DNA of 64,000 nt from a bacterium (GTDB lineage Bacteria; Patescibacteriota; Minisyncoccia; Moranbacterales; UBA2206), in NCBI GenBank assembly GCA_029567195.1, contig JAKQLJ010000020.1, forward strand, positions 3,971 to 67,970, written 5' to 3'. The position numbers and the translations under genes are program-made. Below the pieces are notes generated by a model. The model did not search any database and was not told where the DNA came from. It was given only the letters and a program-made list of their open reading frames with translations. This document shows positions 3,207-61,773 of the stretch, piece by piece (positions within the stretch are counted from its first letter, which is position 1; the number at the start of each line of letters is the position of its first letter).

Positions 3207-4385
3207 ATGAAAATATTGGTCATCGCGCCAACTCCTTTTTTTTCTGATCGGGGAACGCACATAAGAATATTGGAAGAAGCTCTGGCTCTGGAAAAATTGG
3301 GGCATGAAATTACCATCTCTACTTATCATATTGGGAAAAATATTGATCGGAGAATTAACACCAAGATAGATGTCAGAAGGATTTTGCGCCTTCTTTTTTG
3401 GTATAAAAAGCTGGAAGCGGGACCGGATTGGCAGAAAATAATTTTGGATATCATGCTTATCAGAAAAACTTTTTTTCTGGCCAGAACCAAAAAACCGGAC
3501 ATTATTCACGGCCATCTTCATGAAGGAGTGCTCATCGGCTGGATAGTAAAATACCTTCTTTTTTGGCGCAAGATTAAATTGGTGGCTGATTTCCATGGAA
3601 GCCTTACCGGGGAGATGCTTTCTCATGGCTATCTTAAACGCGGACTCAAGGGAATTTTCTCTCAGATTGAAAAATTTATCAATAAACGTGGCGATTATGC
3701 CATAACCAGTTCCTGGGAATGCACAAAGGATGTGAAAAAATCCAGAAAAGATGGTAAAATAGAAACAGTGCTGGATGGAATTAATCTCGACAGTTTTGTT
3801 TTTTCTTCAAAAAAAGAAGAGATGAAAAAAGAATGGGAAATTCCGGACGGAAAATTTATCGTTGGTTATACCGGGGGACTCATTCCCAATAAAGGAATCG
3901 ATTATCTTTTGAAAGCTATCCCTTTAGTCTTGGAAAAACGGAAGGATGTATTTTTTTTGATTGGCGGTTTTCCTCCGGAAGAAATAGAAAGATTCATAAA
4001 AGACAAAAAATTGGGAGAATTCGTCCGTTTGGTCAGTCCTTTGGATTATTTCCGCTTGCCTGAGTTTTTGCATATTTGCGACATTGCTATCGATCCCAAA
4101 GGCAGTGATACTAACCAAGCCAGCGGCAAGATGCTGAATTATATGGCAGCCGGACTGGCCGTTGTCTGTTTTGACAAAGTTAATAACCGGGAATATTTAG
4201 GTGAAGGGGGATATTTTTGTCGGGAGATGTCTCCTCTGGCTTTGGCCGAAGGGATTTTTTATTTTCTGGAAAAACCGGAAGAGGCGAAACAAAAAGGATT
4301 ATATAACAGGGAAAAAGCTAAAACTTTTAGTTGGGATGCTCCGGCTAAAAAAATTGAATTAATATATAATAAAATAAAAAGTTAA
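3207..4385 (+). CDS. Glycosyltransferase family 4 (GT-B, glycosyl transferase group 1)
   Basis: Motif YTGGLIPNKGIDYLLKAIPLV, and a C-terminal EGGYF...E/K pattern typical of GT4 donor-binding domains. Confidence 0.8.
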   Translation: MKILVIAPTPFFSDRGTHIRILEEALALEKLGHEITISTYHIGKNIDRRINTKIDVRRILRLLFWYKKLEAGPDWQKIILDIMLIRKTFFLARTKKPDIIHGHLHEGVLIGWIVKYLLFWRKIKLVADFHGSLTGEMLSHGYLKRGLKGIFSQIEKFINKRGDYAITSSWECTKDVKKSRKDGKIETVLDGINLDSFVFSSKKEEMKKEWEIPDGKFIVGYTGGLIPNKGIDYLLKAIPLVLEKRKDVFFLIGGFPPEEIERFIKDKKLGEFVRLVSPLDYFRLPEFLHICDIAIDPKGSDTNQASGKMLNYMAAGLAVVCFDKVNNREYLGEGGYFCREMSPLALAEGIFYFLEKPEEAKQKGLYNREKAKTFSWDAPAKKIELIYNKIKS

Positions 4386-54696: not shown

Positions 54697-56271
54697 TTAT
54701 TTATTTTTTTTAAATCCAAAACTTCGGGCTAAAAACTGCAAATCTTCTTTTTTTATCTCTCTTAAAGTATATAAAATAATAAGGTAAAAGACAAACAGAA
54801 TTACGGACCAGGGAATGAAAATCAAGCTTCCTTTGGAAAAAAAGAAGGAAACTGCGTAGACAACAAGTCCGGCCGAAGATATTTTCAAAAAACTTTTCAG
54901 TTTTATTTTCACGCCGAAATCTCTCCAGACGTAATAGAGCATAAAAAAGGTGACGACGGCCGAAGCGATAGAAGTGGCGATGGCCGATCCCATAATGCCG
55001 TATTTTTTTATTAAAAAATAATTCAAAATGGTGTTGACAGCCAAGCCAAAAATGGAAAGAATCATGGGGATTTTAACTTTTCCGGCGCCGCTCATAACAA
55101 AGCAAAAAACATAATAAATCGTTAAAAAGCCGACACCCCAGACCAAAACGGACATTGGAGCGGCGGCATCAATATAGCGGCTGGAATAAAAAAGCTTGAT
55201 TATTGGCGCGGAAAAAACGCTCATAAGGATGACAGACGGAACAAGAAGAACAAGCATAAGTCGTAGTGTTTGATTGACGATTTCGCCGGCTTTGGTATGA
55301 TTTTTTTCCGCTGTCGTTTTGGAAATAACAGGAAGAAGCACGACAGTCAGAGCGTAAAAAATATAATAAGGAATGCGGCCGATGGTAAGTGCGGCATTGT
55401 ATATGCCGGTCAGATAATCATCTTTCAAAATGCCTTTTACCAGATATAAATCAATGCTGATCAGAAGTTCGTAAGCCAAAAAGAAGATGACAATTTGCCA
55501 GGCATAGTTGACTAACTTCTTCCAGTCAAATGTTATGTCATCGGGCATCTTGTTGTCATTCCCGCGAAGGCGGGAATCTAGCATGGAAATTTTAGCTATC
55601 TCATTGGATGTCGGATCAAGTCCGGGATGACAATTTTCTAATTCTATTTCCTTTGCTTTGATTTTCGGACTTATCCGGATTTTATCGATGGCATAACCGA
55701 TAAAGAACAAAATTCCGGGAGCCATAATATATCCAACTATGGAACCTTTCAACTTGAAATAATAGGCCAAGGCAATGATGAATATCAATCGTAAAACTGA
55801 GCGGGTAATTTTCAGGATTGATTGGATGCCAAATTCGTGAAGTCCGGTGAAATAAGAAAAATAAAATGAAGCGGCGGCAAAGGCGGGAATTATAAGCGTG
55901 GAAATTTGGAAAAGGGGAGTGAGGGTTGGATCTCCAAGAATCTTGGAAATAAGCGGCGCAGACAAGAAAAAAAGGACAGTGATGGAGCCTATAATGATGC
56001 TTTGTAAAATAATAGCTTGCCGTTTTATTATCCCAACCATTCTCGGATTAGATTCAAAAATTTCACTGATATATTTGCTCATGGCGGTCGGAATGCCGTT
56101 GCCGATAAGAATGATGACCATGGTGGTAAGAGTTACCACTAACCCGTATCGTCCATAATCTGCCGGGCCCAAAATTCTTCCGACAACCGAGTGAATGACA
56201 AAACCGGAGATATTAAAGATTATCTCCGAAACAGTGACCCAAATTGTGGCCTTGGCGAAACTTTTAGACAT
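54697..56271 (-). CDS. Polysaccharide biosynthesis protein / flippase (Wzx, MOP superfamily) carrying an in-frame palindromic element
   Basis: 524 aa, 12-14 TM helices and a Wzx-like N-terminus (ATIWVTVSEIIFNISGFVIHSVVGRILGPADYGRYG). A hydrophilic insert ENCHPGLDPTSNEIAKISMLDSRLRGNDNKMP lies mid-protein. Confidence 0.7.
   Translation of the reverse strand: MSKSFAKATIWVTVSEIIFNISGFVIHSVVGRILGPADYGRYGLVVTLTTMVIILIGNGIPTAMSKYISEIFESNPRMVGIIKRQAIILQSIIIGSITVLFFLSAPLISKILGDPTLTPLFQISTLIIPAFAAASFYFSYFTGLHEFGIQSILKITRSVLRLIFIIALAYYFKLKGSIVGYIMAPGILFFIGYAIDKIRISPKIKAKEIELENCHPGLDPTSNEIAKISMLDSRLRGNDNKMPDDITFDWKKLVNYAWQIVIFFLAYELLISIDLYLVKGILKDDYLTGIYNAALTIGRIPYYIFYALTVVLLPVISKTTAEKNHTKAGEIVNQTLRLMLVLLVPSVILMSVFSAPIIKLFYSSRYIDAAAPMSVLVWGVGFLTIYYVFCFVMSGAGKVKIPMILSIFGLAVNTILNYFLIKKYGIMGSAIATSIASAVVTFFMLYYVWRDFGVKIKLKSFLKISSAGLVVYAVSFFFSKGSLIFIPWSVILFVFYLIILYTLREIKKEDLQFLARSFGFKKNK
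55553..55640. repeat. In-frame palindromic mobile-element copy within the flippase CDS (ttgtcattcccgcgaaggcgggaatc...gtccgggatgacaa)
   Basis: Same termini and internal cccgcg-aa-ggcggg hairpin as the 1187 and 11805 copies. Read on the minus strand it gives NCH...RLRGNDN with no stop. Confidence 0.55.
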
Positions 56272-56899
56272 TGTTTTTTATTTCTTCGAAAATTTGCATC
56301 TTGTCCCTGTTGCCGTCAATTATTTTCCAATTCCATTGGTCGGATTTCTTATCATAAATTTCCTTTTTCTTCCGAAGATATTCTATGCCCTGTTCAGGTT
56401 TTCTTTCGCGTTGCATGATTTGTTCGGGAGAGGCTTGGAGGTAAATCGCTATATCGGGACGTATAATTTTGTCATTTCCGCCAAAGCCATGCTTACCGGC
56501 AGGCAGGCGGTAATGACAACTTAAGAATTCTATATTTATTATGCTATCATAAAAATAACGGTCGCTGAGAATATAGTCATAACCGGAATTACGTAATTTA
56601 TTGCGTAATTTTTCAAATCTCCAGATATCGATTTTTAAAAATATTTTTCTCAGTTGAATTTGCATCCAGTTGGCCTTGGTGACGCTTTTTTCTTCGCTGT
56701 TTTTAATATTGCATTTTCCGGTCAACCGGCAAATCAGGCAATATTTATTTTTAAAATTGGCCAGCTTTTTAGCCGTCCCGTGCTGGATGGCATGGAAATA
56801 AAAAACCTTCTTGCCTTGCTGTTCAAGATAGTTTTTGAGCAGTTCTATTTGGGTTGATTTTCCACTGCCATCAAGGCCTGAGATAGTAATAATTTTCAT
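56264..56899 (-). CDS. tmk: Thymidylate kinase-like P-loop kinase carrying an in-frame palindromic element
   Basis: P-loop GLDGSGKSTQ, a DRYFYDSII (DRY..S) motif and a PDIAIYLQASPEQIMQRERKPEQ lid region. A 19-aa insert SCHYRLPAGKHGFGGNDKI lies between the two. Confidence 0.6.
   Translation of the reverse strand: MKIITISGLDGSGKSTQIELLKNYLEQQGKKVFYFHAIQHGTAKKLANFKNKYCLICRLTGKCNIKNSEEKSVTKANWMQIQLRKIFLKIDIWRFEKLRNKLRNSGYDYILSDRYFYDSIINIEFLSCHYRLPAGKHGFGGNDKIIRPDIAIYLQASPEQIMQRERKPEQGIEYLRKKKEIYDKKSDQWNWKIIDGNRDKMQIFEEIKNNV
56466..56523. repeat. In-frame palindromic mobile-element copy within tmk (ttgtcatttccgcc-aaagccatgcttaccggcaggcaggc-ggtaatgacaa)
   Basis: 14-bp inverted arms. The core aaagccatgc(c/t)taccggcaggcaggc is identical to the 1201-1230 copy. 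It is 57 nt long, a multiple of 3. Confidence 0.6.
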
Positions 56900-56955: not shown

Positions 56956-57789
56956 TTATAACGGGCTTTTGATGTTTTGCAAATTATTATTGGCCACTTT
57001 CGTGTAAATCTGGGTTGTTTCCAGCTTGGCATGCCCTAAAAGCGTCTGGATATATCTTATATCAGTTCCACCTTCCAGTAAATGCGTGGCAAAAGAGTGG
57101 CGAAGAGAATGGCAAGAGGCGCATTTTTTTATGCCTGAATTTTTGAGCGCTTCAGCAAAAACCTTTTGTGCGGTTCGTTCCGTCAGTTTGCCTCCGCGAT
57201 CTGATTCAAAAACATAATTATCCGCGTTTTTATTTTTTACATATTTTCGCAGAACATTGATTATTTTTTCCGACAAAATAGTCGTTCTGTCTTTTGCGCC
57301 TTTAGCGCCGCGGATAAATAATAATTTACCGTCAAAATCAAAATTTTTCACTTTTACGCTCACAACTTCTGATACTCGCAATCCTGATGAATACATAAGT
57401 CCCATCATTAGTTTATGTTTGACGCTTAAAATAGTTCCCAGAATTTTCCTAATTTCCTCTTTTGTAAAAACTTCCGGTATTTTCTTGGGTTTTTTGGCGC
57501 GAGGAATATTGGCAAAAAACCGGCGGCGGAGTATTTTTTCAAAATAAAATCGGAGGGCGCTATAAGCGGTGTTTAGTGTTGAGGCGGATTTGCTGTCATC
57601 TACCAACTTTTCCAAATAATTCCGTAAATCCTGGGCGTTGATATTCCTGGGATTTTTATTTGCGAACTTTAAGGCGGCTGTTATATAATAAAGATAAGAT
57701 TCGACAGTTCTGGGACTAAAATGCCGCAGTTTCATCTCCTGTTTTAATTGATAAACCGGATCCTTGCTAGGGTAATAATTTCCATTCAT
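56956..57789 (-). CDS. Tyrosine site-specific recombinase (Xer-like, 277 aa), divergent from cassette array
   Basis: Catalytic residues are in order: SGLRVSEV (Arg), GAKGAKDR (Lys), HSLRHSFAT (HxxR), LLGHAKLETTQIYTKV (His and the Tyr nucleophile). Confidence 0.8.
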   Translation of the reverse strand: MNGNYYPSKDPVYQLKQEMKLRHFSPRTVESYLYYITAALKFANKNPRNINAQDLRNYLEKLVDDSKSASTLNTAYSALRFYFEKILRRRFFANIPRAKKPKKIPEVFTKEEIRKILGTILSVKHKLMMGLMYSSGLRVSEVVSVKVKNFDFDGKLLFIRGAKGAKDRTTILSEKIINVLRKYVKNKNADNYVFESDRGGKLTERTAQKVFAEALKNSGIKKCASCHSLRHSFATHLLEGGTDIRYIQTLLGHAKLETTQIYTKVANNNLQNIKSPL

Positions 57790-57839: not shown

Positions 57840-57885
57840 TATTTTAAAACAATTCGCATATAAGAAGTTATCGGAAATAAATTAA
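57840..57885 (+). other. Putative attI-like recombination site (caaTTCGCATataagaaGTTATCGGAAATA)
   Basis: Lies between the recombinase start and the first cassette gene. It contains a GTT triplet followed by the same 13-mer, GTTATCGGAAATA, found at cassette junction 60901-60913. The TTCGCAT...GTT half resembles the right arms of the downstream attC-like sites. Confidence 0.4.
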
Positions 57886-57897
57886 AAACCTCAACCT

Positions 57898-58323
57898 ATG
57901 AAGAGATTAAAATGTAATGTCGGCGAATATGGCGTAATCGTAAATCAACGAGAAGAATTTTTGATTTTAAGACTCCCCCTAAACAAAGAGTTTGCCAAAG
58001 AAATGTGGATGTTCCCGGGTGGCCGACTTGATGCTGATGACCAACCTGAGCTTGGCTTACAGCGTGAAGTACTAGAAGAAACCAGCCTTAAAATAAAAAT
58101 TATCGCTCCTGTTCACGTCGCCAGATGGGGAATTGAGAATCCGTCGAAGTACTCGGTATTTTTTCTATGTCGTTTAATTGGCAAGCAGGAAGTAAAGATC
58201 AGCCACGAACATATTGAAAGCAAATGGATAAAATTTAGTGATATAGAAAAAATCCCTTGGCATAATATTAACAGTAAGCTAGCAGCAAAAAAATCAAAAA
58301 TTCTCCTGGCGAAAGGTTTTTAA
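57898..58323 (+). CDS. Nudix hydrolase (cassette 1)
   Basis: Nudix box GGRLDADDQPELGLQREVLEETSL (Gx5Ex7REVxEE). Confidence 0.7.
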   Translation: MKRLKCNVGEYGVIVNQREEFLILRLPLNKEFAKEMWMFPGGRLDADDQPELGLQREVLEETSLKIKIIAPVHVARWGIENPSKYSVFFLCRLIGKQEVKISHEHIESKWIKFSDIEKIPWHNINSKLAAKKSKILLAKGF

Positions 58324-58330
58324 TTTACAT

Positions 58331-58406
58331 CCGATAACACGCGATATCCAAAATTTACTACGTTGCACTTTAGTAAACTTCGGATATCGCGGATACGTTA
58401 TCTGAA
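58331..58406 (+). other. attC-like imperfect palindrome 1 (gatAAC-a-cgcgatatcc...ggatatcgcg-gatac-GTTatctgaaat)
   Basis: 10-bp L-type stem with an extended outer stem (aaatttacta/tagtaaa). 5'-AAC is 1 nt from the stem and GTT-3' is 5 nt from it. It directly follows the stop codon. Confidence 0.5.
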
Positions 58407-58428
58407 ATTGCAAAAAGCTTTCTAAAAA

Positions 58429-58980
58429 ATGATAAAAAAACCAAAAAGGATAATCATTGTTCCCAGCAACGACATCAATCCTCTGAACCAGCTATCAAAT
58501 ACTCATACATTGTTGAGATGTAAGGACGCTTTGAAGCTATGGAAAACAAATGGGTTTGATTTTATCGTAACTTCTGGAGGTTGCTACTACAACAAAAAAG
58601 TACAAACTATACCCGCCGCTGACATAATGAAGAGTTGGTTTGTTTCAAATGAAGTTCCTGAGGCTCAAATTATCAGTGAGAATAAATCGCTTGATACTTA
58701 CACTAACCTTCATTATTCGTTGAAATTATTGAAAGATAGCAACATCACTCTTGGTAATTTAGCTATTGTCAGTCATTGGACACACCTGACCAGAATAAAA
58801 ATAATTTTGTGGCGAAATTATAAAATCAAACCCGTTTGTTTTCCCGTTGAGTATAAACTGTCTTTTGCTGAATGGCTACATGAATTTTTTTGGTTTTTTT
58901 ATCATTTTTTAGACAAAACAGGCGATGGATTTCTGGAAAGAAAGATTCGCAAAATGGTTGAGGTTAGAGCTTCTTCGTAG
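58429..58980 (+). CDS. DUF218 (YdcF/ElyC-like) domain protein (cassette 2)
   Basis: IIIVPSNDINPLN...IVTSGG...IISENKSLDTYTNLHYS matches the DUF218 pattern (GG...E...S.nT.eN). Confidence 0.5.
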   Translation: MIKKPKRIIIVPSNDINPLNQLSNTHTLLRCKDALKLWKTNGFDFIVTSGGCYYNKKVQTIPAADIMKSWFVSNEVPEAQIISENKSLDTYTNLHYSLKLLKDSNITLGNLAIVSHWTHLTRIKIILWRNYKIKPVCFPVEYKLSFAEWLHEFFWFFYHFLDKTGDGFLERKIRKMVEVRASS

Positions 58981-58994
58981 GAGCTTTTTGCAAC

Positions 58995-59178
58995 ATCAGA
59001 TAACACGGCACATGCGGTTCATCCCGCCCTTTCATTTTTATATCAAGGTATGGCGGGACTCTCCCAAATTGCGCTGACGATATGGCTAGCTTAGTGATAT
59101 AATCAAGTAAAGCGAAATTAACAAATTTAATCAATAATCCACGGCGCAACTTCGCATGTGCCGAAACGTTGAGCGAAA
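58995..59178 (+). other. attC-like imperfect palindrome 2 (agatAAC-a-cggcacatgcg...cgcatgtgccg-aaac-GTTgagcgaaat)
   Basis: 11-bp stem, internal 7-bp hairpin (tcccgcc...ggcggga). GTTGAGC fits GTTRRRY. Confidence 0.5.
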
Positions 59179-59232
59179 TAATAATAAATTTTCCTTTTAA
59201 CTAAGACAGTTCAATTCCGGTCATTTTCTTAT

Positions 59233-59712
59233 ATGCAGAAAAAAATCAAATATTTAAAATCTTTACCAAGCAAAACCGTGGCAGTAGGTGTTTTATTGTT
59301 TGATAGAAATAATCAACTTCTAGTCTTGAAGCCTGGGTACAAGGATTGCTGGACAATCCCAGGCGGTATTGTAGAAAAACTTGAATCGCCGAATATAGCT
59401 GCAATACGAGAAGCAAAAGAAGAAGTTGGCTTAGCTATTAAGCTTGTTCAATGTATTGGCGTTGATTATTTGTCATACCAACTCGCAGATTATAAAGGTG
59501 AAAGTTTGCATATTATTTTCATTGGCAATCGCTTATCAAGCAAAGATGTTAATAATATTCATATTGATGGTAAGGAAATTATTGAATACAAATTTGTTGA
59601 TTTTAAAGATGCGGTAAAAATGATTGACCCGCTTCTTTCTAGAAGGCTAAGGGGATTGCATAAAAAGCTCAACAAATTTGTGTTTATGGAAAACGGGATA
59701 AGGAAAGCGTAA
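59233..59712 (+). CDS. Nudix hydrolase (cassette 3)
   Basis: Nudix box GGIVEKLESPNIAAIREAKEEVGL. Confidence 0.7.
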   Translation: MQKKIKYLKSLPSKTVAVGVLLFDRNNQLLVLKPGYKDCWTIPGGIVEKLESPNIAAIREAKEEVGLAIKLVQCIGVDYLSYQLADYKGESLHIIFIGNRLSSKDVNNIHIDGKEIIEYKFVDFKDAVKMIDPLLSRRLRGLHKKLNKFVFMENGIRKA

Positions 59713-59767
59713 AAGAAAATGACCCGAATTGAATTACAAATAAGGAATGAAAAATTTATTATTACAT

Positions 59768-59903
59768 CGCCCAACATCGAGTATGGGGTAAAAATATTTA
59801 CCTTTTAGTAATTTAATAGATGAACGTAAAATATTTTTGACCCAAATTCTGTTTCGTTTCACTTCAACAGAACTTCCCATACTCGAAAACGTTAAACGAA
59901 ATT
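59768..59903 (+). other. attC-like imperfect palindrome 3 (gcccAAC-a-tcgagtatggg...cccatactcga-aaac-GTTaaacgaaat)
   Basis: 11-bp stem whose sequence differs from site 2 but keeps identical spacer geometry (1 nt / 4 nt). GTTAAAC fits GTTRRRY. Confidence 0.5.
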
Positions 59904-59912
59904 TTGAAAAAT

Positions 59913-60287
59913 ATGGATTTATCGCAATTAAAAAACGGCAAATATTTTAGAGGGCACTACACTGACCGTGGTGAATATAGAGGGTGGTTTTGTGGATCGT
60001 TTTTAAAAGAAAATCACCCCGGAAAAACGGAACAATTGGAAATAAAATACGCTGAACATAAAAAGGGAGACATCGAAAAGCCGCACTATCATCAAAAAAT
60101 GATTGAAGTATTAATTTTTTTGGAGGGGAAGGCTAAATTTAACGTAAATGGAGAAAATGTTATGCTCGGCAAGGGTGATTTTCTTTTTGTGGATGTGAAC
60201 AATATCATTTCCGGAGAGTTCCTTGAACCCTCTAAAATATTTGCTTTGCATACCCCAAGCCTTCCTGATGATGAAGTATTTGTGTAG
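59913..60287 (+). CDS. Cupin-domain protein (cassette 4)
   Basis: HYHQKMIEVLIFLEGKAKFNVNGENVMLGKGDFLFV is a cupin motif pair. ATG at 59913 is preferred over the TTG at 59904. Confidence 0.6.
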   Translation: MDLSQLKNGKYFRGHYTDRGEYRGWFCGSFLKENHPGKTEQLEIKYAEHKKGDIEKPHYHQKMIEVLIFLEGKAKFNVNGENVMLGKGDFLFVDVNNIISGEFLEPSKIFALHTPSLPDDEVFV

Positions 60288-60304
60288 TAATATTTTTCAA
60301 AACA

Positions 60305-60460
60305 TCGCCTAACACAACATATCCGGCTCATCCCACCTTTCATTTTTATTATTCAAAGTATGGCGGAATTCACCCAAATTGCCGATTTTCTTTTCATTCT
60401 ATATACTTAAATCAAGGTAAAAATCGGCAACTTCGCATGTGCCGAAACGTTATGCGAATT
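60305..60460 (+). other. attC-like imperfect palindrome 4 (gccTAAC...caacttcgcatgtgccg-aaac-GTTatgcgaatt)
   Basis: The right arm is nearly identical to site 2. The left arm is degenerate (acaacatatccgg). It has a GCCTAAC R''-like box. Confidence 0.45.
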
Positions 60461-60510
60461 TTCTTTTAAATTATTTTTTGCTCTTTGGAAACCACAAGAA
60501 GGAGGATGCC

Positions 60511-60732
60511 ATGAAATTCAGTACTATTGCAAGGGTTGTTGTTATTGGCGTATCTTGCATCATAGTTGGATACGTCATGCTAAAGGTGTTCGAGGCTAAT
60601 TGTCGCGAGGGGCTAACTAAGACGAATCATGAGCTTGCTCACTTGGAAAGCATGACTCCGGAAAAATACTACCAGGAGGTGAGGGAGAAGCTTATTCTTC
60701 AAAGAGATAACTACGAGCAAGCACTTAAGTAA
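60511..60732 (+). CDS. Small membrane protein, 73 aa (cassette 5)
   Basis: Strong RBS aggagg 6 nt upstream of the ATG at 60511. One TM helix (VVVIGVSCIIVGYVML). The track ORF start at 60439 lies inside the attC-like site and is unlikely to be real. Confidence 0.45.
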   Translation: MKFSTIARVVVIGVSCIIVGYVMLKVFEANCREGLTKTNHELAHLESMTPEKYYQEVREKLILQRDNYEQALK

Positions 60733-60879
60733 ACAAGGGGTGGCTTTCCCAAGGAGGCCACCCATTCATTCTTAGCAAAAAATTTTTCAAAATGAAACTC
60801 AAGGGACATTGCGCTTTTGCCCCACTCAAATTTTGTGCCCTTTTCTTTCTTTTATATTATAATAAGGAAGAAAGACAAA

Positions 60880-60915
60880 AACTTCGGATGATGCGTAAAC
60901 GTTATCGGAAATACT
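60880..60915 (+). other. Cassette junction with right-arm-only attC remnant (aacttcggatgatgcgtaaac-GTTATCGGAAATA)
   Basis: The 13-mer after GTT is identical to the attI-like site 57867-57879. No matching left arm was found. A ggggtggc...gccaccc hairpin upstream at 60737-60763 may be a terminator. Confidence 0.35.
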
Positions 60916-60936
60916 TAATTTTTTAATTTCAAAATT

Positions 60937-61194
60937 ATGGATAATAAAAAATTAGCAGAATATATTATGGCTATTTCTAATTTTAAGTGTATACGTGCTG
61001 AGGATAGAATTACATTGAATTCATATTTGGCTGATTCTGCAAAGATACTTGCAAAAATAGAGCTTAATCTTCCTCTCGAAAACGATATTGATAATCATGA
61101 AAAGTTGTGGGGGCATACTTGGCTGATTGATGGAAATAGCCATGAAGTTTTATATAAAAAGTGGTCTGATTTCAAAGAATCTTTAAAAAATTAA
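60937..61194 (+). CDS. Hypothetical protein, 85 aa (cassette 6)
   Basis: ORF directly after the junction site. No motifs recognized. Confidence 0.4.
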   Translation: MDNKKLAEYIMAISNFKCIRAEDRITLNSYLADSAKILAKIELNLPLENDIDNHEKLWGHTWLIDGNSHEVLYKKWSDFKESLKN

Positions 61195-61295
61195 GCGCAT
61201 TCTATAATACCCAATATTTAGTTCCACAAAAGAGAAAAATCCGCATAATTTTTTCATTTTGAATTGAGCTTTTTTTATGATTTTTTACCAAAATA

Positions 61296-61318
61296 AAACC
61301 CCGGGCATTGCTCGGGGC
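61296..61318 (-). terminator. Rho-independent terminator (minus strand): ccccgagcaatgcccgggg + TTTTATTTTGG
   Basis: A 5-bp GC stem followed by a T-run on the minus strand, immediately 3' of ORF 61336-61557. Confidence 0.5.
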
Positions 61319-61335
61319 GAAGAGAACCGTGGAAG

Positions 61336-61557
61336 TTACGAACGGTTATGGTCAATGATTTGCCGAAGCGCTTCCGGCACATTATATTGCGGAAACTCAT
61401 CTGATAATTCACGAACTATCTCTGACGAAAGTTTGGTCGTACGTGCGTATCTATGCGTATACTCACTCCTAATCTTGATTTCTATCAGTATCGGAGCGGA
61501 CGTACGTCCTTCCTGTTTCTGCTGCTCTGCAAGAGCATTAAATTGATCAAAATACAT
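61336..61557 (-). CDS. Hypothetical small protein, 73 aa, in locally GC-rich (~50%) segment
   Basis: RBS aaggagg 7 nt upstream. Its composition is clearly distinct from the flanks. Confidence 0.45.
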   Translation of the reverse strand: MYFDQFNALAEQQKQEGRTSAPILIEIKIRSEYTHRYARTTKLSSEIVRELSDEFPQYNVPEALRQIIDHNRS

Positions 61558-61773
61558 CGCTGTCCTCCTTGGCTGGATGATTTTTTACGGAACTACATCA
61601 ACGTAATAGGATAGCATAAAATAACATTCCTGTCAAATGCCGTTGGCAAAAAATTATAAAAAAGCTCTTAAATTAAGGAAATTATACGGATTTTTCTTTT
61701 TCACTCCACTCAAATTTTCTATTAATCGCTAATCCTTCTTTCTAAAGCCCGAAACGGGAAAATAAATTTAAAA

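Follow-up and report, generated by a model that had tools for sequence, protein, structure and literature searches.

A probable integron-like cassette platform beside a Xer-type recombinase gene in a Patescibacteria genome, and the arm that opens its cassettes

The stretch analysed here, hereafter the window, comprises 64,000 nucleotides (nt) from a tiny, uncultured bacterium of the Patescibacteriota (Minisyncoccia; Moranbacterales; UBA2206), and corresponds to positions 3,971 to 67,970 of the forward strand of contig JAKQLJ010000020.1 (assembly GCA_029567195.1). It contains a gene for a tyrosine recombinase of 277 amino acids, intermediate between Xer and IntI (56956-57789, minus strand), followed by a site resembling the attI of integrons and by six co-oriented open reading frames (ORFs) on the plus strand. 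The products of these are, in order, a NUDIX protein, a DUF218 protein, a second NUDIX protein, a cupin, a small membrane-type protein and an 85-amino-acid protein; none of the cassettes encodes a recombinase. Such a layout of recombinase, attI-like site and co-oriented cassettes separated by hairpins had been proposed in an earlier reading by a model that saw the letters and their ORFs only (the sequence-only reading), and it is supported here. The present analysis concerns a 13-mer, GTTATCGGAAATA, that is repeated in this array, and its place in the structure of the cassettes.

The attI-like core (57851-57878, plus strand) is a dif-like site of 28 bp, with two partly symmetric 11-bp arms around a 6-bp centre: the left arm is AATTCGCATAT, the centre AAGAAG and the right arm TTATCGGAAAT. 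The centre ends in the crossover G at 57867, and the right arm is supplied by cassette 1. Each cassette carries a hairpin site, called attC as in integrons. On the top strand it consists of R'' (consensus ACATC-N4-AAC), one unpaired base, an L'' arm and a variable loop, and its 3' half consists of an L' arm (consensus AACTTCGCAT..), an unpaired spacer of 4-5 nt ending in AC, and GTT-N4-GAAAT (R'). The 5' end of a cassette and the stretch that leads up to and includes its own R'' form an inverted repeat, referred to below as the closing stem.

All six cassettes lie on the plus strand. Cassette 1 (57868-58397, junction G at 58397) holds the first NUDIX ORF (57898-58323); the R'' of attC1, ACATCCGATAAC, is at 58327-58338 with the L''/L' hairpin following it, and the closing stem of 25 nt joins 57867-57891 with 58314-58338. 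Cassette 2 (58398-59168) holds the DUF218 ORF (58429-58980), a closing stem of 58397-58419 with 58982-59004, and a long attC2 (58993-59179). Cassette 3 (59169-59891) holds the second NUDIX ORF (59233-59712) and a closing stem of 59168-59197 with 59746-59775, its attC3 extending to the junction at 59891. Cassette 4 (59892-60449) holds the cupin ORF (59904-60287) and a closing stem of 59891-59914 with 60290-60313, and its long attC4 ends at the junction GTTATGCGAATT (60449). Cassette 5 (60450-60901) holds the membrane-type ORF of 73 amino acids (60511-60732); the 3' half of attC5 is well formed and its 5' half decayed. Cassette 6 (60902-61260) holds an ORF at 60937-61194 and only a decayed R''-like partner, which ends near 61208 and is complementary at 19 of 30 positions.

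An exact search of the whole window finds the 13-mer on the plus strand at 57867-57879, where it forms the crossover GTT and the 5' arm of cassette 1, and at 60901-60913, where it forms the last well-formed junction and the 5' arm of cassette 6, and nowhere else. The two positions given in the sequence-only reading are therefore correct, and the 13-mer is not the frequent, randomly placed word that would have spoken against that reading. With up to two mismatches there are 12 matches in the window against 3.15 expected, a number reached in none of 100 shuffles. The bare pattern GTT-N4-GAAAT is not enriched (7 matches, 7.3 expected); the junctions at 57867, 58397, 59168, 59891 and 60901 account for five of the matches. 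With the sixth junction at 60449, all six carry the pattern, once as a GAATT variant, and the related versions noted earlier at the other junctions are those at 58397, 59168, 59891 and 60449. A position weight matrix built from the junctions (24 nt upstream plus 13 nt) matches the five attC (inter-cassette) junctions only, all on the plus strand, with no match on the minus strand.

To describe the box beyond the window, 46 distinct junction right sides from 16 loci with related recombinases were compared. The contexts of these loci came mainly from look-ups of the exact protein; a contig scan with a single recombinase protein gave only eight loci, several of them cut at the site, and a metagenome scan gave mostly distant relatives (35-48% identity). 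Over the 46 junctions G1 and T2 are each present in 45, T3 in 46 and a purine at position 4 in 44; G8 and A9 are present in 43, A10 and A11 in 45 and T12 in 44. Position 13 is A or T in 44 (A in 21), and positions 5-7 and 14 onward are variable. Conservation extends to position 12, beyond the 7 bp of the canonical R box, and the extended box is therefore real, general and conserved far beyond the genome of the window.

The 12-mer GTTATCGGAAAT is the joint commonest allele, found in 6 of the 46 junctions. It also occurs at the attI junctions of loci L002, L015 and L018 and at an attC junction of L010. GTTAGGC, a canonical core site, is a common allele as well. A special relation between the attI and the last junction, implied by the identity of the two 13-mers, was considered and rejected: the allele recurs in four other genomes, and the pairing of the copy at 57867 with the R'' at 58327-58338 assigns this copy to cassette 1. 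The presence of GTTATCGGAAAT at two of the six junctions of the window needs no further explanation.

In most loci with a recombinase at least 58% identical to that of the window, AATTCGCATATAACTA followed by GTT-N4-GAAAT or a close variant is found about 78 nt upstream of the recombinase start codon. The left arm and GTT are kept at this distance in L001, L009-L011, L013, L015, L016, L095 and L096; variants of the left sequence are GTTCGGATATAACTA in L009 and L010, GGTACGTATATAAAGA in L099 and AGTTCGTTAATAACTT in L097. Among the distant relatives (47-53% identity) the left arm is recognisable in L019 and L002, and only ...AACGA precedes GTT in L017 and L018. The GAAAT right arm is retained in L002, L017 and L018, and L019 has GTTATCGTAAAT. 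Some junctions carry a mutated exchange triplet (GAT or ATT for GTT) with the rest of the box intact, at about 3641 nt (L096), 3148 nt (L013) and 616 nt (L019) upstream of the recombinase gene; the cassettes concerned look as if they had become immobile.

The attC sites show the imperfect palindrome R''(..AAC)-L''...L'-R'(GTT..), together with single-strand folding in which the bottom strand is favoured. For example, the fold of attC1 has z = -4.3 for the top strand and -5.9 for the bottom strand, and in the latter it forms a continuous L stem and a one-sided bulge of 4 nt. Of 21 attCs from nine loci, 18 fold more stably as the bottom strand, with means of -22.2 and -19.5 kcal/mol for the bottom and top strands, respectively. 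This bias is the same as that of classical integron attCs. In those, however, extrahelical bases lie in the L stem, whereas here the invariant unpaired positions are 10 and 11 of the R arm.

The closing stem was analysed in 21 cassettes, which were chosen regardless of this feature. Positions 1-9 are complementary in 19-21 of the 21 cassettes, and positions 10-11 in none. Two classes may be distinguished by R'': class A (13 cassettes) has ACATC (once GCATC), and class B (8 cassettes) has CCCTC, GCCTC and similar sequences. In class A, positions 12-21 are complementary in all 13 cassettes and positions 22-25 in 12, 11, 10 and 10, respectively, and pairing then falls to 2 of 13 at position 26. 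The extended recognition sequence of the sequence-only reading is present as a box, but it reads best as an 11-bp Xer-type arm at the base of a 25-bp closing stem, which that reading had not seen.

In an alignment of the virtual circular junctions, 82.5% of the cells are paired, compared with 59.8% in shuffles, and none of 500 shuffles reaches 82.5%. In 19 of the 24 stem pairs changes have occurred on both sides, and when the partner is slid by 1-3 columns, the pairing drops to 30-43%. At the unpaired step, AA on the R' side faces CA (13 cassettes), CC (four, and one more where R' has CA) or GG (two). In 18 of 20 cassettes the bottom strand has a T.G wobble at position 11, which makes it the strand with the better-formed stem. 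Among the non-Watson-Crick positions of the top strand, A.C outnumbers G.T by 8 to 3.

Further inverted repeats, here called second-tier, are found inside the cassettes, several of them in coding sequence: 58421-58447 with 58887-58913, 58541-58565 with 58820-58844, 59210-59236 with 59707-59733 (cassette 3), 59938-59954 with 60228-60244, and 57951-57968 with 58290-58307. One of them is perfect over 27 nt: one copy covers the DUF218 start codon, and the other lies close to the 3' end of that gene. Of the 12 longest long-range inverted repeats in the window, nine fall in the 3-kb array, and the density of second-tier repeats is 1.86 per kb in nine arrays and 0.50 per kb in the flanking DNA (3.7-fold). 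Palindromy of whole cassettes as the source of these repeats was rejected, the self-complementarity (mean z of 0.96, compared with -0.40 in controls) being barely above that of shuffles.

In 17 of the 21 cassettes the N4 of R'' is identical to that of the cassette's own 5' end, and in three more it agrees at three of the four bases. The R' with which R'' shares a hairpin is part of the following cassette, and the N4 of that R' is identical in only one of the 21. Therefore, the sequence after GTT travels with the cassette, as the sequence-only reading had held in placing the exchange in GTT. The exchange point lies within the invariant GTT, the exact phosphodiester being beyond the resolution of sequence.

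Comparison of loci points in the same direction. At L011 the left arm of the attI is joined directly to GTTATACGCAATT and a flank; the same flank (94-97% identity) lies 1.9 kb away in L009 and 1.5 kb away in L013, in each behind two cassettes. L011 looks like an empty platform, and L009 and L013 like filled ones. The shared flank is a non-coding, conserved sequence of about 125-175 nt (L011, 1-200; about 1974 nt and 1591 nt upstream of the recombinase gene in L009 and L013, respectively), for which no Rfam match was found. L009 and L010 have an identical recombinase protein, and their cassettes differ from GTT onward; a site with the cassettes inserted at G|TT beside the recombinase gene is what is seen in integrons. 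Some attC types are common to different genomes (L015 with the window; L095 with L096). The contigs of L012 and L003 stop exactly at ...AACTAGTT(A), as assemblies do where a population diverges, and the breaks at or near the attI suggest variation in cassette content within the population. The assemblies of L001, L011 and L099 also break within 220 nt upstream of the recombinase gene. Four other assemblies of the organism of the window (L100-L103) stop short within the array, either at attC2 or in cassette 5, and up to there show no alternative cassette order.

The recombinase passes the cut-off of NF040815 (recomb_XerA_Arch; XerA/integron integrase; 227.5 bits, cut-off 220), but fails that of TIGR02249 for integron integrases (224.4 bits, cut-off 265), its match to the latter being split in two stretches. 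When it is aligned with VchIntIA (2A3V), query residues 184-201 span chain residues 181-241 (16 residues compared with 59), and a region of about 43 residues, which in VchIntIA holds the IntI-specific domain, is missing. The alignment to Pyrococcus abyssi XerA (4A8E) is colinear (E = 1.3e-44). An AlphaFold model (mean predicted local distance difference test score 81.6) shows a loop with short bridges, and no helix, at residues 184-203; the best Foldseek matches are 2A3V (VchIntIA), followed by XerA. The protein is a Xer-family tyrosine recombinase without the additional domain near patch III (intI_Cterm/I2 helix). Hundreds of close relatives, 65-84% identical, are found in metagenome-assembled genomes of Moranbacteria, Parcubacteria and other Patescibacteria.

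The definition of an integron integrase requires the IntI-specific additional domain (PMC9668308; PMC4889954), and Cury et al. held that recombinases without the IntI region near attC sites are not integron integrases (PMC4889954). By the bacterial and archaeal integron definition the recombinase is not an IntI, by profile score, alignment and model alike, and on this point the sequence-only reading is not supported. The arrangement of gene, site and array is either an exception to the rule of Cury et al. or a separate system that works alike.

Xer sites consist of 11-bp arms around a 6-bp centre, with cleavage at the arm boundary (PMC5357621), and the XerD arm of Escherichia coli dif is TTATGTTAAAT (PMC3025954). 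Compared by eye, TTATCGGAAAT agrees with this arm at 8 of 11 positions, and TTATGTGAAAT of L009 at 10 of 11. The left arm of the attI agrees with GGTGCGCATAA of E. coli dif at 7 of 11 positions with the same spacing, to give 15 of 22 for both arms, and TTAT....AAAT of the attI is like TTATGTTAAAT at the outer and inner bases. P. abyssi dif is ATTGGATATAA-TCGGCC-TTATATCTAAA (PMC2958812); inner ATATAA and TTATA are common to both sites, which read CATATAA/TTATA here and GATATAA/TTATAT there. The native site of L011 is AATTCGCATAT-AACTAG-TTATACGCAAT. From these likenesses, the box would be the binding arm of a Xer-type enzyme within a dif-like attI, and the L'-R' half of each attC would be a second, longer-spaced version of the dif-like site.

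Several features of the window lie outside this core of evidence. The sequence-only reading took 60901 as the last junction; it is the last well-formed one, but decayed units continue to about 61.7 kb. An inverted repeat of 31 nt, 61230-61260 with 61670-61700, is 81% complementary and encloses a reverse ORF of 73 amino acids (61336-61557), and the unit of 61230-61700 may, on weak grounds, be a decayed distal cassette or an old array end. ATTATACGGATTT at 61681 resembles the native right arm of the related genomes (GTTATACGCAATT), but a search for that arm in the window gave only chance-level matches (those with three mismatches occur at chance frequency), and the one at 61681 is suggestive at best. 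Two hairpin sites, attC2 (about 170 nt) and attC4 (60302-60460, about 140 nt), are unusually long. They have an inner module in common (59043-59072 matches 60353-60382) and an identical 3' end, AACTTCGCATGTGCCGAAACGTT, and each contains promoter-like hexamers that read into the next cassette (59074-59103 and 60379-60407, respectively); the same type of site is found in L015 with 88% identity. An intrinsic-terminator-like hairpin with a T run (60738-60763) lies within the array, directly after the ORF of cassette 5, and would keep transcription from running on into cassette 6. Scans of the array for promoters and terminators remain at background level (20 promoter-like matches, 14.1 expected), and no known RNA family or tRNA gene that might be an integration target was found in the window, L009, L011 or L013. 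Elsewhere, GC-rich hairpin repeats lie inside ORFs of this AT-rich genome (55557-55580, 1214-1246 and 56496-56508): GTCATTCCCGCGAAGGCGGGAATC in a flippase-like ORF (55557-55580), and CCGGCAGGCAGGC in three copies at 1214-1246 and one at 56496 in a kinase-like ORF (four copies, 0.02 expected). These repeats resemble small palindromic elements that have been inserted in frame.

We consider it likely that the array is an integron-like, Xer-type cassette platform of Patescibacteria, in which the 13-mer is GTT plus TTATCGGAAAT(A), one of the commonest alleles of an 11-bp arm, TT-N4-GAAAT, that opens every cassette. The mechanism proposed would involve protein binding to this arm, single-strand chemistry and a choice of strand. 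The recombinase gene adjoins, at about 78 bp, the dif-like 11-6-11 attI, at which promoterless, co-oriented cassettes would be inserted successively. An excised cassette would be a single-stranded circle, by analogy with integrons and with the integration of CTX phage at dif. In the circle, the cassette's own 5' arm would lie next to L' and pair with R'', to give an R stem of 9 or 25 bp with a fixed unpaired step; the predicted circle junction of cassette 1 is ...CGGATATCGCGGATACG|TTATCGGAAATAAATTAAAAACC. The recombinase would bind the bottom strand at its R and L arms, together with the duplex attI; one strand would be exchanged at AA|C (G|TT in the top strand), and replication would resolve the product and complete the insertion. 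With the exchange at GTT, the arm and everything 3' of it would move with the downstream cassette.

Two reasons may be suggested for the conservation of GAAAT. First, it may be the outer part of a protein-binding arm, as in the XerD arm TTATGTTAAAT. Second, its GA and T would pair with the TC and A of every R'', despite the foreign partner that R'' has in the array: there R'' faces the arm of the next cassette, and only GTT, GA, T and part of N4 would pair. The hairpins are predicted to be weaker in the array than in the circle, which would create a bias toward capture. The unpaired positions 10-11 and the wobble at position 11 would favour the bottom strand. In a classical attC the choice of strand is made through extrahelical bases read by the IntI-specific domain, which this enzyme does not have.

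Some points weigh against this reading. The 5' halves of attC4 and attC5 are poorly paired. In class B, 8 of the 21 cassettes, pairing ends at position 9, and because these lack the extension past 9 bp, the 25-bp stem is not obligatory. Part of the conservation of the box could reflect lineage history instead of constraint, taxon-specific conservation of attC sites being known for chromosomal integrons (PMC8352920). The window covers 64 kb, and a true IntI may be encoded elsewhere in the genome. The binding of the recombinase to GAAAT is suggested by conservation and by resemblance to Xer arms, and cassette circles and activity are predictions. Finally, the site may not be the chromosomal dif, because GC skew gives no consistent placement of the terminus; the site was tried as a terminus in this way, and no consistent change of sign was seen at it in the window, L009, L013, L015, L095, L096 or L097.

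Among the alternatives, recombination of the double-stranded Xer/dif type would make each junction (ACTTCGCAT...AAC-GTT-N4-GAAAT) a duplex dif-like site, and the cassettes dif modules or islands similar to integrative mobile elements exploiting Xer (IMEX), moved by two strand exchanges in which the hairpin halves have no part. In every attC the L'-R' half does read as dif-like, with a left arm resembling that of the attI. The recombinase, moreover, passes the XerA model cut-off, and inverted copies of the right arm flank the cassettes as they do in pdif modules. Against this, covariation links R''/L'' to R'/L' in unrelated sequences, most of the attCs fold better as the bottom strand, and the centres differ in length and sequence, both between attI (6 nt) and attCs (9-10 nt) and among the attCs. 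Exchange of two strands by tyrosine recombinases needs homology in the overlap, and heterologous centres would block it. Duplex recombination is, in our judgment, an unlikely account of the array.

Alternatively, only GTT and AAC may be recombination signals, and the 25-nt complementarity of the cassette ends and the second-tier repeats may act in RNA, either as processing stems of RNase III type, at which a polycistronic transcript is cut to yield stable monocistronic messenger RNAs, or by masking translation starts. The partners lie within the same cassette in the array and are thus able to pair in a transcript, the stem ends sharply at about 25 bp and contains an internal loop, the long-range repeats are enriched in the arrays (3.7-fold), and second-tier repeats cover start and stop codons (58421-58447/58887-58913 and 59210-59236/59707-59733). 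However, the non-Watson-Crick positions favour the antisense (bottom) strand, as the 8 to 3 ratio of A.C to G.T in the top strand indicates, GAAAT is kept equally in the class B cassettes that have no extension, and only in the circle does the stem join the attC hairpin without a break. A purely RNA-level function of these sequences is improbable on this evidence, but an RNA-level role of the 25-bp stem and the inner repeats could coexist with the recombination mechanism.

An ordinary integron, in which GAAAT reflects shared ancestry of the attCs in one lineage (as in the Vibrio repeats) and nothing is recognised beyond the 7-bp R box, would also have arrays, AAC/GTT boxes and hairpins of classical appearance, as well as attC types common to different genomes (L015 and the window; L095 and L096) and GTTAGGC as a common allele. 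Against this, N4, the L arms and positions 13-25 are free to vary, but GAAAT is invariant over the 46 junctions, from loci whose recombinases may be as little as 47% identical, and it is kept at attI junctions too. In addition, the recombinase lacks the IntI-specific domain, and such enzymes are not treated as IntI by the authors of IntegronFinder (PMC4889954). We therefore hold this explanation to be quite improbable. Chance repetition of a short AT-rich word agrees with the count of the bare pattern in the window, but it is already refuted by the position of five of the seven matches at hairpin junctions in a single orientation, by the restriction of the exact 13-mer to junctions, and by the retention of the pattern at the homologous position in 16 loci.

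If the array is the integron-like platform proposed above, a more tentative step may be taken. It might represent an undescribed class of platform between Xer/dif and integrons, in which a Xer-like recombinase without the IntI domain, possibly a housekeeping one, captures hairpin-ended cassettes at its own dif-like site, and in which an 11-bp arm and a 25-bp stem with a two-base non-paired step take the place of extrahelical bases. In integron biology the IntI-specific domain is held to be needed to recombine folded attC sites. Here, a family without it, 47-84% identical across many Patescibacteria, is found beside an insertion site with apparently empty and filled states and covarying hairpins. 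Were the proposal true, the domain by which IntI is defined would not be needed for integron-type recombination, and the system would be a living model of the origin of integrons from Xer. If active, it would offer a natural test of how single-strand recombination evolved from Xer/dif, extend cassette gene capture to ultra-small symbionts with reduced genomes, and explain the assembly breaks at the attI in these genomes. The 11-bp arm and the 25-bp stem may also serve as search patterns for cassettes that integron finders would miss or call orphan attC clusters. The finding clearly bears on how integrons arose and on how they are defined.

Among known systems, the pdif modules of Acinetobacter resemble the cassettes in being gene modules bounded by inversely oriented pairs of Xer-type half-sites. 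They are plasmid-borne, with fixed XerC/XerD sites and a mechanism that is not known, and they are not known to have a hairpin partner within a few tens of bases or to form an array beside a recombinase gene. In CTX-phage integration, a folded single-stranded attP reportedly mimics a dif-like duplex and insertions are stacked in tandem, according to what Val et al. are said to have found in 2005 and Das et al. in 2013. The present system would be alike in using a folded single strand with mismatches, one exchange by a host-type Xer and tandem stacking, the single-strand route being suggested here by covariation and strand bias, and its cassettes likewise have no recombinase of their own. In contrast to CTX-type IMEX, the units here are many single-gene cassettes without replication or phage functions, and they lie beside the recombinase gene. 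The Xer/dif systems with a single recombinase (archaeal XerA/dif, XerS/difSL and XerH/difH) have two inverted 11-bp arms, as here, and the difSL site also lies beside its own recombinase gene (PMC5357621). The site in the window differs from theirs in carrying an inserted cassette array with hairpin partners.

Integrons are alike in having a divergent recombinase gene, an insertion site beside it, and co-oriented, mostly single-ORF cassettes with decayed members at the distal end. The AAC...GTT hairpins with an L stem, an unpaired spacer and a variable loop, the exchange in GTT, the match of the 5' bases of a cassette to its own inverse core and the better folding of the bottom strand are also common to both, and VchIntIA is the closest solved structure to the recombinase of the window. 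The full-text literature searched contained no description of integron or attC arrays in Patescibacteria, the Candidate Phyla Radiation (CPR), Parcubacteria or Moranbacteria, which is not proof of novelty. In contrast to integrons, the recombinase here has no IntI-specific domain, the R' side is a 12-nt GTT-N4-GAAAT instead of GTTRRRY, a covarying 25-bp closing stem contains an invariant dinucleotide that stays unpaired, the attI is a dif-like 28-mer close to a palindrome, and the host belongs to the Patescibacteria.

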